Virus record (IMG/VR): IMGVR_UViG_2671180743_000009
Reading direction: 5' to 3' (one strand)
Length of the DNA: 8,376 nt
Origin: a virus
Lineage: Duplodnaviria > Heunggongvirae > Uroviricota > Caudoviricetes
Shown here: in pieces, positions 643 to 8,376 of the stretch
How positions within the stretch are numbered: the stretch's first letter is position 1
Layout of the letters: each line of letters starts with the position of its first letter
Made by a program: the position numbers and the translations under genes
Notes under the pieces: model-generated
What the model saw: only the letters and a program-made list of their open reading frames with translations
Database searches by the model: none
What the model was told of the DNA's origin: nothing

Positions 643-717
<75 letters not shown>

Positions 718-720
718 ATA

Positions 721-796
<76 letters not shown>

Positions 797-798
797 GC

Positions 799-875
799 TG
801 GCCCACCACCGAGGACTCGAACCTCGCACCGTCAACTTAGAAGGTTGATGCTCTATCCGGATGAGCTAGTGGTGG
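799..875 (-). tRNA. tRNA-Arg, anticodon UCU
   Basis: Reverse complement CCACCACTAGCTCATCCGGATAGAGCATCAACCTTCTAAGTTGACGGTGCGAGGTTCGAGTCCTCGGTGGTGGGCCA. All four stems are Watson-Crick, the anticodon loop is CTTCTAA, and CCA is encoded. The molecule starts with an unusual C1-G72 pair. Confidence 0.75.
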
Positions 876-876
876 T

Positions 877-953
877 TGGTGGCCCTTGCTGGACTTGAAC
901 CAGCGACCTGGCGATTATGAGTCGCTCGCTCTGACCAACTGAGCTAAAGGGCC
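877..953 (-). tRNA. tRNA-Ile2, anticodon CAU (lysidine type, ileX/ileZ-like)
   Basis: Reverse complement GGCCCTTTAGCTCAGTTGGTCAGAGCGAGCGACTCATAATCGCCAGGTCGCTGGTTCAAGTCCAGCAAGGGCCACCA. Anticodon loop is CTCATAA. Acceptor, anticodon and T-arm segments resemble E. coli ileX from memory rather than elongator or initiator tRNA-Met. Confidence 0.75.
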
Positions 954-3158: not shown

Positions 3159-3314
3159 TTACTTCCTGGATTCGTAGTCTACGAAGACAGCGACCTCCGT
3201 CTGGCCGGTTCGGATTCGTACCTCACAGAGGTCTTTCCTCGTTACCAGTGCCGTCACTATGACGGTTAAACAGATGACGATCAGGGCGATTAACATCGCC
3301 TTTTGCTGCTTCAT
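3159..3314 (-). CDS. hok: Hok/Gef-family type I toxin, 51 aa (closest recalled relative HokD/RelF)
   Basis: Translation MKQQKAMLIALIVICLTVIVTALVTRKDLCEVRIRTGQTEVAVFVDYESRK has the Hok hallmarks: a single transmembrane helix, the RKDLCEV motif and a TGQTEVAVF C-terminus. AAGGAG Shine-Dalgarno 9 nt upstream of the internal ATG. Confidence 0.8.
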   Translation of the reverse strand: MKQQKAMLIALIVICLTVIVTALVTRKDLCEVRIRTGQTEVAVFVDYESRK

Positions 3315-3371
3315 AGCCTGCTTCTCCTTGCCTTTCGGCATGTAAGAGGCTAACCTACATGTGCAAAGCAT
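3159..3371 (-). CDS. mok: mok-like in-frame upstream extension of hok, 70 aa
   Basis: ORF 3159..3371 begins MLCTCRLASYMPKGKEKQAMKQQKAM, the same pattern as E. coli MokC as I recall it (an N-terminally extended Hok in the same frame). Confidence 0.5.
   Translation of the reverse strand: MLCTCRLASYMPKGKEKQAMKQQKAMLIALIVICLTVIVTALVTRKDLCEVRIRTGQTEVAVFVDYESRK
3328..3356 (+). promoter_or_regulatory. Candidate Sok antisense-RNA promoter: -35 TTGCCT, 17-bp spacer, -10 TAACCT
   Basis: Plus strand has TTGCCT (3328-3333), a 17-bp spacer and TAACCT (3351-3356), inside the mok/hok 5' coding region on the opposite strand. The predicted start near 3363 would give an RNA complementary to the mok start and Shine-Dalgarno region, as in hok/sok systems. 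No clean terminator found. Confidence 0.3.
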
Positions 3372-3490
3372 GAAATTGGCCTCAGATTAATGTTAAGCGT
3401 CTTGCCGGACGCGTAATGTTAACTGGGGCTTTTCTCTATCTGCCTTTTGGTGTTCATGCCTGAAGCAGATAGCCTCAAGCACCCGCAGTC

Positions 3491-3541: not shown

Positions 3542-4228
3542 TCACTCCTTCTCTTCTTTACCGTAGTGGAGTTGACCAATTTTGATAAGAGGGCGTCCCT
3601 GAGATTTGCGGTGTAGATTGGTATCGCGCAGAGAATACACACAGCCACAATATTCCTGCTGATAGAATTTTTCGCGCTTGCTGATTTCAATCATACGGGA
3701 CGAGCCGCCCTGCTTGCGCCAGTTATAATCCCAGTACACCATGCCCGGATAATGCGCGACGGCTCGCCGCCCACAGTCGTTAACCTGCTGCATATTTTTC
3801 CAGCGTGAAATGCCCAGTGAACTGCTGATCACACTGAAACCATTTTCAGCGGCGTACAGCGCTGTCCGCTCAAAACGCATGTCAAAACACATGGTGCAAC
3901 GGATCCCTCGTTCGGGCTCCCATTCCATTCCTTTGGCTCGTTCAAACCAGTTGTCTGTGTCGTAATCAGCATCAATAAACGGCACGCCGTGTTGTTCAGC
4001 AAAGCGAATATTCTCATCCTTACGAATTAAATACTCTTTCTGAGGATGAATGTTCGGGTTGTAGAAAAAGATGGTGTAGTCGATTCCCGAGGCCTGAAGC
4101 GCCTCCATCACCTCACCGGAACATGGAGCACAGCAAGAGTGCAGTAGTAGTTTGTTTGCCCCGTTTGGGAGCTCCAATTTGGGCCGTTTGAAATCAGCAA
4201 CTGTCATAAATATGTTTATTGGGGTCAT
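3542..4228 (-). CDS. queH: QueH-like epoxyqueuosine reductase (DUF208 family), 228 aa
   Basis: ORF 3542..4228 carries the ordered motif set I associate with DUF208/QueH: [11 protein letters not shown] near the N-terminus, then [29 protein letters not shown] and YCGCVYS near the C-terminus. Start codon is ambiguous (ATG at 4228 or 4207; neither has a clear Shine-Dalgarno). Confidence 0.7.
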
Positions 4229-4789: not shown

Positions 4790-5212
4790 TCACAGTATCG
4801 CCTCCTGAAAATTACCCTGATAGAAAGCCAGTACACGCTGCATAGCTTCGCTCTTCCGGCACTCGCGACAGATTATATTCAGGCGCCTGTCGTAGCGGCG
4901 TATTTCTCCGTCAGGTAATGACCAGATAAGGTCCGGATCAACAACAACCGGTTTCCTCACCTTTACTCTCGAGAGTTTTTTGCGGGCGCTTTGCCAGTCC
5001 TTGCGAGCCTGTTCAGACGGGAATAAGCCGTAGCCAGAATTATATACATCACCACTTGCGACCAGTTCTATGCATAAGCGACCGACAGACGCACGACTGA
5101 TACCTGTTTCATCTGACAACTGCCGAATCGTGACCCGACCGTCCTGATGCACGAGTTCCACAATTCGCGTCTTCAGTTCTTCCCGCTGTTCGGGAGTAAA
5201 AGGTTTCGCCAT
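4790..5212 (-). CDS. Hypothetical DNA-binding protein, 140 aa, N-terminal winged-helix-like region
   Basis: ORF 4790..5212 with an AGGAGG Shine-Dalgarno 7 nt upstream. The segment VTIRQLSDETGISRASVGRLCIELVASG looks like a helix-turn-helix; the C-terminus has CRECRK. Sits immediately downstream of the DnaC-like gene. Confidence 0.5.
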   Translation of the reverse strand: MAKPFTPEQREELKTRIVELVHQDGRVTIRQLSDETGISRASVGRLCIELVASGDVYNSGYGLFPSEQARKDWQSARKKLSRVKVRKPVVVDPDLIWSLPDGEIRRYDRRLNIICRECRKSEAMQRVLAFYQGNFQEAIL

Positions 5213-5226
5213 AAATCCTCCTGAAA

Positions 5227-5973
5227 CTACTTAACAACCCTCGAATGGCTAACATTCGGACGCCAGCTCTCCCAGTTAAAATTCACCCAGCGCCCGCCGT
5301 TCATGACCATGCGATCCATCACCCGCTCGCCGAGCAATGTTTTCATCACCTCATAGTTCAGGTTTGTCAGCATCCCCACGCTGCGCATCGACGCTGTCCG
5401 GCGATCAACAATCTGGTGCAGCACCACCTGCTCGTTTTTCGTCTCGCGCTGAATGCCAATTTCATCAAGAACCAGCAGATCCACTTCGCACAGCTCCCGC
5501 AAAAATTTTTCGCCTGACTGCCCGTCGTCATAGCTGGCGTGCAGGGCGCTCATAACATCAGCCACGGTAACCACAATCACTGTCTGACCGTCTTTCAGCA
5601 GGCGATTCCCGATAGCTGCCGCTAAGTGATTCTTCCCGGTACCAGGTTTTCCGCTGAACGCAAAATTTGTACACCCGGTCATCAGTTCATCGGCGATGGA
5701 TTTCGCCTGGCTTAACGCGTATCGCTGGCCGTCGTTCTGCACCTGGTAATTCGCAAACGAGCATTTACGGTGCAACGGCTGGATGCCTGAGCGATTCAGA
5801 ATTTTTTCCACCCGCAACTGGCGATTCAGGCGGTTGATCTCCTCGCTACGTTTCTGGCCTTCAGCAAGTTGCCACTCGCGCCACTCCGCTACCGTTCTGA
5901 ATGGGGCGGTTACATGTGGCGGGGTCAGTCGGCGGATGCGTTCCAGAACGCCGCCTGTCGCAATATTTTTCAT
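5227..5973 (-). CDS. DnaC-like helicase loader (phage replication protein, YdaV-like), 248 aa
   Basis: ORF 5227..5973. Walker A FSGKPGTGKNHLAAAIGN, Walker B DLLVLDEIG and LLGERVMDRM align along the whole length with E. coli DnaC as I recall it. Confidence 0.9.
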   Translation of the reverse strand: MKNIATGGVLERIRRLTPPHVTAPFRTVAEWREWQLAEGQKRSEEINRLNRQLRVEKILNRSGIQPLHRKCSFANYQVQNDGQRYALSQAKSIADELMTGCTNFAFSGKPGTGKNHLAAAIGNRLLKDGQTVIVVTVADVMSALHASYDDGQSGEKFLRELCEVDLLVLDEIGIQRETKNEQVVLHQIVDRRTASMRSVGMLTNLNYEVMKTLLGERVMDRMVMNGGRWVNFNWESWRPNVSHSRVVK

Positions 5974-6328
5974 GGTCCGTTACCCCCTGAAGCCTGGCGG
6001 GATCGCACTGTCCGGCAACGAGACGGTGTTAACCTGTCGGAGCAACGTCTCAGGCCGAACACCTTTCGGCGCGAACAGGCCCTGGTATTCATTGGCGATG
6101 CTGTGTCGAATCACCTGCTCAGGTGTAAAACCCTGCTGACGGAATTTTTCCAGTTCCCGTATCGCCCCGTTAGCGCCCTGCTCCGTTCGAATCGGTTTTC
6201 GCAATGCCTGTCTGAACCGGACCCACTCATGCCAGAGTGTTTCCGGCAACCAATCGGGCAGCTCAATAGCCTCCGGCTCGAATTTTTTAGACGCTCGTTT
6301 TTGGCGAGGGGGAGATCAGTATTTAGAT

Positions 6329-6366
6329 CTTCCTCTTCCTCTTCCTCTTCCTCTTCCTCTTCCTCT
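6329..6366. repeat. Hexanucleotide tandem repeat (CTTCCT) x 6.3
   Basis: Six perfect CTTCCT units plus CT, read directly. On the coding (minus) strand it is (GAG GAA)6, i.e. Glu x 12, in the middle frame of the YdaU-like gene. It also creates the poly-Ser artefact in the plus-strand ORF 5869..6381. Confidence 0.9.
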
Positions 6367-6390
6367 GGTAACGCTTTTTGATCCGTTTGT

Positions 6391-6409
6391 GTAACGCTGG
6401 CAGCGTTAC
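6391..6409. repeat. 19-bp perfect palindrome GTAACGCTG-G-CAGCGTTAC (copy 1 of 3)
   Basis: Read directly; 9-bp arms around one central base. A GTAACGCT half-site lies at 6368-6375 and an inverted GTTAC...GTAAC pair at 6436-6455. Confidence 0.85.
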
Positions 6410-6599
6410 CTTTTCGTTTCAGTTCGCGTATTTTTGTTACTCGCTCGTTTGTAACCGCCCGTTTTTTTTAGAGCTTTTTCCGTTATGACGTTCAAAGTTA
6501 GGTAGAGAAAGCCCACCGTCATTTTCGACCAGCCATCCAACCTGAATTAACGCATCAGCAAAACCAGACATAAAAGTGATGCGATCTATTGCACTTTTT

Positions 6600-6618
6600 G
6601 TAACGCCGCGAGCGTTAC
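6600..6618. repeat. 19-bp palindrome GTAACGC-CGCGA-GCGTTAC (copy 2 of 3)
   Basis: Read directly; 7-bp perfect arms. Lies inside the YdaU-like N-terminal coding region, where it encodes CNARGVT. Confidence 0.85.
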
Positions 6619-6791
6619 AATCTGCATTACCGTCTATCATTTGTTGATCCGCCCATGCCCAGAAGCGAATAACCTTCCCTAATGCGGCATCTGGATCAAT
6701 ATTCAGAATCTCAGCAAGCCTGAATATTTCCGGCTTATCCGGCGTAATAACCTCGAGCTTTATCCAGTTTGAAGCCATTTGTTTTCACCTT

Positions 6792-6810
6792 GTAACGCTC
6801 GCAGCGTTAC
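6792..6810. repeat. 19-bp palindrome GTAACGCT-CGC-AGCGTTAC (copy 3 of 3)
   Basis: Read directly; 8-bp perfect arms. Ends immediately next to the Shine-Dalgarno sequence of the YdaU-like gene. Confidence 0.85.
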
Positions 6811-6855
6811 ATTTAACTGATACCGAACAAAACAATCCGGCACGATTAATTTCAA

Positions 6856-7274
6856 TCAATGCACTACGACAGAATCGCCGGGCGACCCACCACCGCTGAA
6901 ATGTGCTTTCCGGTAAACGGCCTGGACAGCATCATCATGCGCATCAATTGCCGTACTCAACGCTTCCTGCGCCGCCAGTAATGCACGGCGTTCCAGGGTA
7001 TCGAAGATACAGAGTCGGTGACGCAGCTCACGCGGAAGAATTGCCAGAACCGCAGGGATCAGTTTCTGAATTTTTTCCCTTTGCGCTTTCGTTTCACCTT
7101 TCAACCAACGGTGATAGATATTCTGCTGATTGTTCCAGTCCTTGCCTGGTACCAGAGACAATTCGCCGCCCCCCTGCCGCAGATATTCTTCAGTAATTGC
7201 GTTAGCGACCCACGCCTGCCCTTTTTCGGCTGCCAGGGCAACAGCACTGATTCGATGTGCTCATGCCTGATTTT
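6856..7274 (-). pseudogene. YdaT-like protein (CII-analog partner of the Cro-like gene), apparent frameshift near the N-terminus
   Basis: An ATG at 7272-7274 has an AAGGTGA Shine-Dalgarno and overlaps the dicC-like stop (ATG...TGA), but that frame closes after about 70 codons. The long open frame (in phase with ORF 6856..7161, which has only a TTG start) is open from the dicC stop at 7261. One inserted base between about 7165 and 7262 would give a protein of about 138 aa, matching the roughly 140 aa I recall for Rac YdaT. Confidence 0.4.
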
Positions 7275-7488
7275 CATGAATCACCTTCCAAGGTCGTTTT
7301 GCCTTACGATATTCGTCATAAACTTTGGGGTCGTACTGAAGTTCCCCGCCAGATGCCTCTTGCAGGCGCATCGCGCGACCTTCAGGAACCAGTTCCCCCC
7401 ATGCAGCAATGCTTGCCAGCCTAACTCCTGCGGCATTGGCAAGCTTTGTTTTGCTGCCAAAAAACGCTATAGCATCAATTTTCAACAT
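7261..7488 (-). CDS. dicC: Cro-like small DNA-binding protein (DicC/YdaS family), 75 aa
   Basis: ORF 7261..7488, MLKIDAIAFFGSKTKLANAAGVRLASIAAWGE..., transcribed divergently from the dicA-like repressor. AAGGAG Shine-Dalgarno 6 nt upstream. Similar to Qin DicC from memory. Confidence 0.75.
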   Translation of the reverse strand: MLKIDAIAFFGSKTKLANAAGVRLASIAAWGELVPEGRAMRLQEASGGELQYDPKVYDEYRKAKRPWKVIHENQA

Positions 7489-7514
7489 ATCGAGCTCCTT
7501 AGATTTTCCTAAGG

Positions 7515-7543
7515 AAACTAGATCGTAGAGAAACCTAAGTCAA
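7515..7543 (-). promoter_or_regulatory. Candidate promoter for the dicC-like/early operon: -35 TTGACT, 17-bp spacer, -10 TAGTTT
   Basis: Minus strand has TTGACT (plus 7538-7543), a 17-bp spacer and TAGTTT (plus 7515-7520). The predicted start is about 20 nt before the ATG. CCTAAG-type motifs overlap it. Confidence 0.4.
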
Positions 7544-7550
7544 GAAAAAT

Positions 7551-7564
7551 TAGAATTCCCTAAT
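7551..7564 (+). promoter_or_regulatory. Candidate -10 element TAGAAT for a leaderless or near-leaderless dicA-like transcript
   Basis: TAGAAT at 7551-7556 lies 8 nt before the ATG at 7565. There is no Shine-Dalgarno and no good -35, which resembles lambda PRM driving cI. Confidence 0.3.
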
Positions 7565-7972
7565 ATGAAAAACGAAACCTTCGGTGCTCGCCTCTTACAT
7601 AGGCGTAAAAAATTAAAACTGTCTCAGGCCGCATTAGGTAAGCTGGTCAAAGTGGCTCACGTAACAATTTCTCAATGGGAAAGAGATGAAACACAGCCGG
7701 CGGGGAAAAGATTATTCGCACTGAGCCAAGCGCTTCAGTGCTCACCGACTTGGCTTCTTTTTGGGGATGAAGATAAACAACCAGGCGAACCGATCCCGGA
7801 TAATCAGCCAGCCATTCTGACAGAAGATCAAAAAGAGTTACTTCAACTGTTCGACGCACTGCCTGAGTCAGAGCAAAAGGCCCTGTTGTCAGAGATGCGT
7901 GCTCGAGTTGAAAATTTCAACAAACTTTTTGAAGAACTACTCAAAGCTCGCAAAAGAAGCGCAAACAAATAA
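7565..7972 (+). CDS. dicA: DicA-like prophage repressor (XRE-family helix-turn-helix), 135 aa
   Basis: ORF 7565..7972. The helix-turn-helix region LSQAALGKLVKVAHVTISQWERDETQPAGKRLFALSQALQCSPTWLLFGDEDKQP and the C-terminal ALPESEQ...MRARVENFNKLFEELLKAR match Qin DicA from memory, including its 135-aa length. Confidence 0.85.
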   Translation: MKNETFGARLLHRRKKLKLSQAALGKLVKVAHVTISQWERDETQPAGKRLFALSQALQCSPTWLLFGDEDKQPGEPIPDNQPAILTEDQKELLQLFDALPESEQKALLSEMRARVENFNKLFEELLKARKRSANK

Positions 7973-8004
7973 TCCCCTTTTTTCTCCACACCCTGTAATA
8001 AAAA

Positions 8005-8033
8005 GCACAAACTTTCAAACACTTGTGTTTTTT
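8005..8033 (+). terminator. Weak candidate intrinsic terminator after the dicA-like gene
   Basis: CACAA (8006-8010) can pair with TTGTG (8023-8027) across a 12-nt loop, followed by TTTTTT (8028-8033). The stem is AT-rich and short. Confidence 0.25.
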
Positions 8034-8044
8034 ACATCAAAAAA

Positions 8045-8087
8045 CTTAGGTTTTTCTACACAAAAATCTTGACCGCCCACCTTAGGT
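8045..8087. promoter_or_regulatory. Candidate repressor operators (CTTAGG at 8045-8050; near-palindrome ACCTTAGGT at 8079-8087) next to a TTGACC -35-like hexamer
   Basis: The same CCTWAGG core recurs at 7497-7502, 7508-7514 and 7534-7539 between dicA and dicC. TTGACC at 8069-8074 precedes the small gene at 8175. Confidence 0.35.
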
Positions 8088-8174
8088 TATTCTAAATTTC
8101 ATTCATCAAGACACCGCACGGTGTTCTCAGCAAACAGTTCCGCTACCCCGGCGTTAAGGGGAAATGGGGTCAAC

Positions 8175-8330
8175 ATGAATACTATCGATCTTGGCAACAA
8201 CGAATCTCTGGTGTACGGCGTGTTCCCCAACCAGGACGGCACATTCACCGCCATGACGTATACCAAAAGCAAAACGTTTAAAACCGAAGCTGGCGCACGT
8301 CGTTGGTTGGGAAGACATTCAGGTGAGTAA
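8175..8330 (+). CDS. Small protein, 51 aa, YdfA-like by position
   Basis: Part of the 8121..8330 ORF, starting at the ATG at 8175 (MNTIDLGNNESLVYGVFPNQDGTF...), with a G-rich Shine-Dalgarno-like sequence upstream. It is the first gene downstream of dicA on the same strand, as ydfA is in Qin. Confidence 0.45.
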   Translation: MNTIDLGNNESLVYGVFPNQDGTFTAMTYTKSKTFKTEAGARRWLGRHSGE

Positions 8331-8376
8331 AATGAACGAGACTGAGGTAGCCTGAGTTTAACGGACACTCCTTCCT

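Follow-up and report, generated by a model that had tools for sequence, protein, structure and literature searches.

Sequence evidence for an inherited replication initiator pseudogene, probably broken by two slippage events, in a Rac-like cryptic prophage of likely Shigella sonnei origin

How does a replication initiator gene come to lie in three reading frames, and can the prophage that carries it still make an initiator of its own? The locus in question occupies the minus strand from 6778 to 5980 of the window, by which we mean the whole 8,376-nucleotide stretch of viral DNA analysed here (IMG/VR record IMGVR_UViG_2671180743_000009). A preliminary description made from this sequence alone had placed the breaks at two homopolymer runs and had left two readings side by side, namely a decaying cryptic prophage with a dead initiator or systematic under-calling of homopolymers in the assembly. 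We conclude with high confidence that a lambdoid, Rac-like cryptic prophage has lost its replication initiator gene through two slippage events, and that what remains is a true pseudogene passed on by inheritance. The parts of the gene to which the argument refers are the following.

5980 to 6778, minus strand: whole pseudogene of a two-domain replication initiator, in the ydaU position between ydaT and ydaV
6437 to 6778, minus strand: N-terminal open reading frame of 113 aa, with ATG at 6778, TAA at 6437 and AGGTGA upstream
6462 to 6469, minus strand: A8 run, the first lesion; A6 in intact relatives, the two additional A's shifting the frame
6330 to 6365, minus strand: (GAGGAA)6 poly-Glu linker repeat, in frame and of variable copy number, no lesion
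6307 to 6313, minus strand: sole remaining copy of a TCCCCCT repeat, marking the second lesion, a 10-nt deletion of TCCCCCTAAA at 6306/6307
6283 to 6288, minus strand: A6 run, no lesion, encoding the native Lys-Lys of ...ASKKFEPE...
5980 to 6249, minus strand: remnant of the C-terminal domain, for which the ORF finder chose an internal TTG (Leu) as start

The three-frame observation is borne out on the minus strand, where N-terminal part, linker and C-terminal part each have an open frame of their own, and both of the runs named earlier exist, as T8/A8 at 6462-6469 and T6/A6 at 6283-6288 (T on the plus strand, A on the minus strand). The frame of the basic, poly-Glu-containing linker is -1 relative to that of the N-terminal open reading frame, and the C-terminal part is open in a frame another -1 from the linker, down to the TAA at 5980-5982. 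The TAA of the linker frame (6470-6468) is composed of base 6470 and the first two A's of the A8 run, and between this stop and the deletion site the linker frame contains no start codon. Only the 113-aa N-terminal piece has both a start codon and a Shine-Dalgarno-like sequence, AGGTGA; approximately its first 104 residues are native N-terminal domain, followed by the out-of-frame residues NGRLQTSE and a stop. The internal TTG at which the C-terminal open reading frame was taken to begin encodes the native Leu of DWLPETLW, and no Shine-Dalgarno-like sequence was seen upstream of it.

The breaks were mapped by alignment to the homologs of E. coli OkiPb01676 and COL60J, and the whole window was then compared with the prophages of E. 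coli FDAARGOS_944 and FDAARGOS_943, which are 99.5% and 99.4% identical to it over 8.3 kb. All four encode the initiator as an intact single CDS (262 aa in FDAARGOS_944, 260 aa in FDAARGOS_943, 264 aa in OkiPb01676 and 262 aa in COL60J). The closest E. coli prophages with a one-piece gene lie at 97-99.5% DNA identity and their CDSs span 260-264 aa. At the A8 site the intact genes read TCT AAA AAA CGG (S-K-K-R), and the run is A6 at the equivalent site in every homolog examined from Escherichia, Shigella flexneri, Mixta, Erwinia, Rahnella, Pectobacterium and a Klebsiella phage. A 100-nt probe around the run found a match at 99% identity in 0 of 162 matching complete E. coli genomes, the best of which reached 98.0% over the 100 nt, equivalent to a two-base gap. 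The A8 run is thus correctly identified as a break, but the earlier idea that it is one base short is not: it is two bases longer than the intact A6.

The second break lies elsewhere than had been supposed. The intact genes read GATC TCCCCCTAAA TCCCCCT CGCC where the window reads GATC TCCCCCT CGCC, such that 10 nt (TCCCCCTAAA on the minus strand, AGGGGGATTT on the plus strand) have been lost at 6306/6307. The missing segment comprises one copy of a 7-nt direct repeat and a 3-nt spacer, a pattern that in sequence terms is the signature of slipped-strand mispairing. The exact deletion point is ambiguous inside the surviving repeat at 6307-6313; in the orientation of the gene this repeat precedes the A6 run by 18 nt. 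The A6 run itself, previously taken as the second break, is unchanged in every intact and broken allele examined. A general caution follows for readers of such loci: where two open frames overlap, a homopolymer in the overlap, such as the A6 run here, is not necessarily the lesion.

Repair of the sequence in silico separates the two accounts. Reversal of both mapped events yields a protein of 268 aa that equals the FDAARGOS_944 protein except for 12 versus 6 Glu. The addition of one A at each run, as had been proposed, does open a single frame, with a product of 266 aa where about 270 aa had been predicted; this product carries an extra Lys and has AKNERL in place of the conserved NPPRQKRAS. 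The one-base fix therefore differs from the historical mutation event. The difference in Glu count reflects the (GAGGAA)n tract, which is longer in the window by 18 or 24 nt than in FDAARGOS_944/FDAARGOS_943 and remains in frame. Among loci otherwise 99.4-100% identical the tract ranges from 12 to 48 nt, always in multiples of 6, and so behaves like a fast variable-number tandem repeat. We also considered and rejected mutual compensation among the indels, since +2, -10 and the +18 of the poly-Glu tract add up to +10, a total not divisible by 3, and the poly-Glu change alone keeps the frame.

Could the breaks nonetheless be errors of the assembly, with mis-called homopolymers concealing an intact gene and a working initiator? 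Two of the differences between the window and its nearest relatives do fall in homopolymers, A8 versus A6 at 6462-6469 and G6 versus G5 at 224-229. Both, however, are longer in the window and not shorter, which is the reverse of what under-calling predicts; the second lesion is a 10-nt deletion, and the remaining frameshift, in the neighboring ydaT, is a 1-nt deletion outside any homopolymer. The related claim that all breaks run in one direction holds only modulo 3, the lesions being +2, -10 and -1. Moreover, the lesions are reproduced in independent assemblies. An index of public assemblies has the exact 113-aa product in 236 blocks, which include three complete or megabase-scale chromosomes (UGBG01000002, UGBT01000002 and CP044151) and many short-read drafts, and so the A8 allele recurs with an identical product across assemblies of different kinds. 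In the loci that were read, A8 was present in 10 of 10 and the 10-nt deletion in 8 of 10; the two exceptions, designated L005 and L006, carry A8 and retain the 10 nt.

These loci form a nested series across lineages, from alleles with A6 and an intact gene (L003/L004), through an allele with A8 only and an intact ydaT (L005), to alleles with A8, the 10-nt deletion and the ydaT deletion together (the window and L007-L014). Random base-calling errors are rejected on this ground, since they cannot yield a nested allele pattern, and we regard an assembly artefact as extremely improbable. The lesions are derived, inherited and ordered, with A8 preceding the 10-nt deletion. L005 and L006 differ from the window by 7 single bases across window positions 5050-8345 and lie outside the S. 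sonnei-type alleles. The long-read locus L006 (UGBT01000002.1) has additional single-base homopolymer differences, an observation that might be cited in favor of sequencing error: an extra T in the T6 run at 7071-7076 (at 7070/7071), which leaves an 83-aa ydaT, and one base missing at the equivalent of window position 8062. Whether genuine or homopolymer errors of that particular assembly, these differences leave the verdict on the initiator gene unaffected.

The identity of the host can be approached through the same records. Proteins identical to the window's carry the names of Shigella sonnei 53G (SS53G_2911), FORC11 (the C-terminal open reading frame) and Ss046 (Q3Z436, the ydaT fragment), and the window is 99.9-100% identical to S. 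sonnei-type contigs, poly-Glu length aside. Shigella sonnei is the most likely host, judging by these names and by 100% identity to assembly contigs. A separate loss of the same gene is found in S. flexneri SFBU1023 (L019, CP182556.1), where the A6 run and the 10 nt are intact and a different deletion, of 11 nt (GGGCGCTAACG), has occurred between GGGCG direct repeats at approximately 2080-2090 of the locus, truncating the protein at about 209 aa. This deletion is independent of those in the window, which means at least two losses of the gene in Shigella.

The surroundings of the gene are listed below, together with the other features of the window.

6856 to 7277, minus strand: ydaT pseudogene, with a 1-nt deletion at 7239/7240 after codon 13
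5227 to 5973, minus strand: ydaV, DnaC/IstB-like ATPase, intact at 248 aa (Pfam IstB_IS21/Bac_DnaA on the identical product; annotated ydaV in relatives)
7565 to 7972 and 7261 to 7488: repressor/Cro switch, intact
643 to 953, minus strand: four prophage tRNA genes (Gly-TCC, Thr-TGT, Arg-TCT and one with a CAT anticodon)
3159 to 3484, minus strand: hok/sok type I toxin-antitoxin module (Rfam sok at 3309-3484, 117 bits, and a hokD-like ORF)
3542 to 4228, minus strand: epoxyqueuosine reductase QueH gene, in the prophage early region

The ydaT deletion has the context TT[A]GCC, which contains no homopolymer. FDAARGOS_944/943 and allele L005 keep the gene intact at 140 aa, and its 101-aa fragment occurs on at least 1000 contigs, with a name taken from S. 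sonnei Ss046. S. sonnei-type loci also have IS elements close by, along with integrase and Rha genes that are both truncated. The reading of this region as a decaying cryptic prophage with a dead initiator is thus upheld on several counts: comparison with the intact genes of a 99.5% identical E. coli prophage, of three deposited phage genomes and of other genera shows the lesions to be derived; many independent assemblies share them as an inherited, nested series; and IS elements and a broken ydaT lie close by in the same lineage. The locus has the marks of a frameshift pseudogene in that its relatives have a single open reading frame, its indels are specific and derived, and its downstream pieces lack translation starts. 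Elsewhere in the window, 101 nt are absent at 93/94 relative to FDAARGOS_943/944, and this site and the G6 versus G5 difference at 224-229 both fall between the holin gene and the tRNA cluster. The CAT-anticodon tRNA is called Met by ARAGORN and Ile in the RefSeq annotation of relatives, the hokD-like ORF sits where relatives annotate hokD, and the QueH gene adjoins the tRNA-carrying late-regulation region.

An alternative hypothesis accepts the sequence as it stands and proposes that the gene is recoded, such that a programmed -1 ribosomal frameshift or transcriptional slippage at A_AAA_AAC (A8), and then at A_AAA_AAT (A6), gives the full-length initiator, with the 113-aa product as a second, regulatory form comparable to IS1 InsA/InsAB' or dnaX tau/gamma. 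Both runs are indeed X_XXY_YYZ heptamers in the correct phase and both of the required shifts are -1, although an A8 run presents an in-phase heptamer in every phase and this agreement carries little weight. After the A6 run the RNA fold is somewhat better than that of shuffled sequences (z -2.4), but the same sequence is present in intact genes that need no shift, and downstream of A8 no stabilising structure is found (-9.4 kcal/mol, z +1.1). In the L005/L006 allele a single -1 event at A8 would restore the entire protein, whereas the window allele would need two independent low-efficiency events, and its recoded product would have AKNERL instead of the conserved residues. Homologs outside the lineage are read in one frame without a shift and all enterobacterial ones examined have A6, which argues against a conserved recoding signal, and the flanking ydaT is also broken in a lineage with IS elements around the locus. 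For these reasons we consider recoding highly improbable. The length of the A8 run may nonetheless allow some transcriptional or ribosomal slippage, with a trace of frame-corrected product past the first lesion.

What, then, was the protein before it was lost? The intact 262-aa homolog of FDAARGOS_944 matches PHROG 2509, 'replication initiation protein', over residues 1-262 against 1-277 of the 277 profile positions (E 1.2e-89). The window's N-terminal open reading frame matches positions 1-102 of the same profile (E 1.1e-58) and its C-terminal open reading frame matches positions 193-277, and relative to the members of this family the window copy is split by +2 and -10 and has a longer poly-Glu tract. 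The C-terminal domain also matches PHROG 6451 and 678, the latter, 'replication initiation O-like', being a partial match over residues 77-236. Three deposited E. coli phage genomes encode a one-piece 262-aa protein with 95.8% aa identity to the intact relative, and such phage proteins (for example that of Escherichia phage vB_EcoS-673R7) are annotated 'DNA replication protein O' with a DnaC-like gene next to them. In Mixta, Erwinia, Rahnella, Pectobacterium, a Klebsiella phage, phage ZX5 and Planctomycetota, the gene is one open reading frame (233-333 aa); the N-terminal domain and linker are the same as here, but the C-terminal domains vary. The possibility raised at the outset that related phages might have separate small genes here is contradicted by these one-ORF relatives. 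Matches to TFIIA and to an 'Apicomplexa microprotein' were set aside as below-threshold noise from the low-complexity poly-Glu tract.

The C-terminal part of the protein is 85% identical over 119 aa to residues 167-285 of K-12 YdaU, and residues 169-261 of the intact homolog align to the C-terminal domain of DnaT (PDB 2ru8, E 9.4e-5; 9zbt, E 3.2e-4); the phage ZX5 relative, which has the same type of N-terminal domain, matches Pfam DnaT PF17948. For the N-terminal domain the picture is different. The repaired protein, the fragments and the FDAARGOS_944 homolog showed no match to DUF1376 (PF07120) at E up to 0.1 in a Pfam scan in which the positive control, K-12 YdaU, matched at residues 22-104 (E 2.7e-26), and the N-terminal 140 aa of the intact homolog had no BLAST similarity to K-12 YdaU. 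Pfam and NCBIfam assign the N-terminal domain to no family. The earlier label 'YdaU/DUF1376' is accordingly half right: it is apt for the C-terminal 119 aa and for the ydaT-ydaU-ydaV gene order, but the N-terminal domain is not DUF1376. By analogy with lambdoid O/P systems, the N-terminal domain would recognise the origin and the C-terminal domain would work with the DnaC-like YdaV, whose product is presumed to be the helicase-loader partner of the initiator. The literature searched contains nothing on the function of ydaU, nor on ydaU, ydaV and replication together, and the papers on the Rac prophage within it mention ydaU only in gene lists.

A further question is where such an initiator might bind. 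The gene and its leader contain perfect palindromes of the form GTAACGC-N5-GCGTTAC, of which three were found against 0.01 expected by chance. They were detected by a pattern search for 7+7 palindromes and a script; an inverted-repeat search with a threshold of >=12 nt did not report them.

6391 to 6409, unstranded: GTAACGC-N5-GCGTTAC palindrome inside the linker-coding region, intact
6600 to 6618, unstranded: GTAACGC-N5-GCGTTAC palindrome inside the N-terminal coding region
6792 to 6810, unstranded: GTAACGC-N5-GCGTTAC palindrome ending 14 nt upstream of the ATG at 6778, just before AGGTGA

In every homolog examined, down to approximately 50% aa identity, the two in-gene palindromes occupy equivalent positions and keep their arms while the spacers differ, and they lie about 198-219 nt apart (the window and loci L016, L017, L018, L019-L021, L024-L027 and L029). 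They are absent from K-12 ydaU, the N-terminal domain of which differs. Where the encoded amino acid is the same, the third base of the codon agrees in 31 of 32 cases within the arms and in 308 of 612 elsewhere, counts that are indicative only, as the lineages are partly non-independent. This excess points to selection on the DNA itself. The palindromes have stayed intact in the window and are candidates for the binding sites of the initiator or for the origin. The N-terminal domain, with its NFERHNGK motif and both in-gene palindromes, is found at approximately 50% aa identity in a Planctomycetota MAG (L026), in Stieleria magnilauensis (L027) and in an unclassified Pseudomonadota MAG (L029), where it is joined to unrelated C-terminal domains. 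This type of origin and initiator has an unexpectedly wide host range. If the locus holds wider interest it is here only, in that conservation of the palindromes at the DNA level from Enterobacterales to Planctomycetota points to the origin or binding site of the family.

In a third alternative, the fragment has been domesticated: the 113-aa N-terminal domain would have been kept, would bind GTAACGC-N5-GCGTTAC and would act as a dominant-negative that excludes phages with the same origin. The fragment does retain its start codon, AGGTGA and the whole conserved N-terminal domain, all three palindromes are intact, and the A8-only allele also extends beyond the S. sonnei-type alleles (L005/L006). 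Against this, no stand-alone N-terminal genes were seen in the phages and other genera examined, all of which have two-domain open reading frames, and an intact repressor/Cro switch lies upstream, which in a lambdoid layout would imply silence in the lysogen. The lineage offers no internal sequence variation on which selection could be tested. S. sonnei is clonal, and so the identity of the fragment across many assemblies is uninformative on selection, for or against. Neutral decay is the simplest reading, and domestication appears quite unlikely. We also regard as very unlikely a combined proposal, in which the product of the A8 allele is an origin-binding inhibitor of 113 aa that excludes phages of the same type and in which slippage in L005/L006 additionally gives some full-length initiator, in the manner of IS1 InsA/InsAB'.

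We return, then, to the inherited pseudogene and its history. The ancestral gene coded for a single protein of about 262 aa, built from a presumably origin-binding N-terminal domain, a linker that is basic and contains poly-Glu, and a DnaT-like C-terminal domain, common with K-12 YdaU, that presumably partners the downstream DnaC-like YdaV. The reading best supported is neutral decay through replication slippage. In a first slippage step the A6 run grew to A8, and in a second, 10 nt were lost between two TCCCCCT direct repeats. As a result, only the 113-aa N-terminal fragment keeps a start, and the linker and the C-terminal domain are left without one of their own. With its initiator gene broken, the prophage is unable to supply its own initiator, though ydaV and the candidate origin palindromes are intact, and autonomous replication would have been lost with it. 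The answer to the question with which we began is that no initiator can be made from this prophage's own gene, owing to a biological defect and not to a fault of the assembly. Annotators should treat the three pieces at 5980-6778 as one pseudogene and not as the separate 'hypothetical' or 'bacteriophage' proteins of several S. sonnei genomes. It is an ordinary pseudogene, the pieces of which have already been deposited in public Shigella sonnei records.

Comparison with known systems places the gene more precisely. The K-12 Rac prophage has YdaU in the same slot, in the order repressor, cro-like gene, ydaT, initiator gene and DnaC-like ydaV, but K-12 YdaU begins with a DUF1376 domain that is absent from the window gene; relative to it, the window gene is by sequence a mosaic produced by exchange of the N-terminal, presumed specificity domain. 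The resemblance to the C-terminal DNA-binding domain of DnaT is weak, falling below the Pfam/NCBIfam threshold for this protein, and the rest of DnaT is absent. Lambda O is a two-domain initiator with an acidic or flexible linker, symmetric sites within its own gene and a helicase-loader gene directly downstream. The window gene is like lambda O and ori-lambda in its two domains, linker, internal repeated sites and adjoining presumed loader gene, the likeness of the N-terminal domain being one of layout and not of demonstrated sequence similarity. It differs in that lambda has four tight iterons and lambda P as partner, whereas the sites in the window lie ~190-220 bp apart and the presumed partner is DnaC/IstB-like. 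With respect to its loss, the window gene has no feature that distinguishes it from the general pattern of prophage decay in Shigella, where pseudogene formation in cryptic prophages fits general genome reduction. It resembles the pseudogenes of other Shigella cryptic prophages in its slippage indels, in the IS elements nearby and in its independent inactivation in two Shigella lineages.
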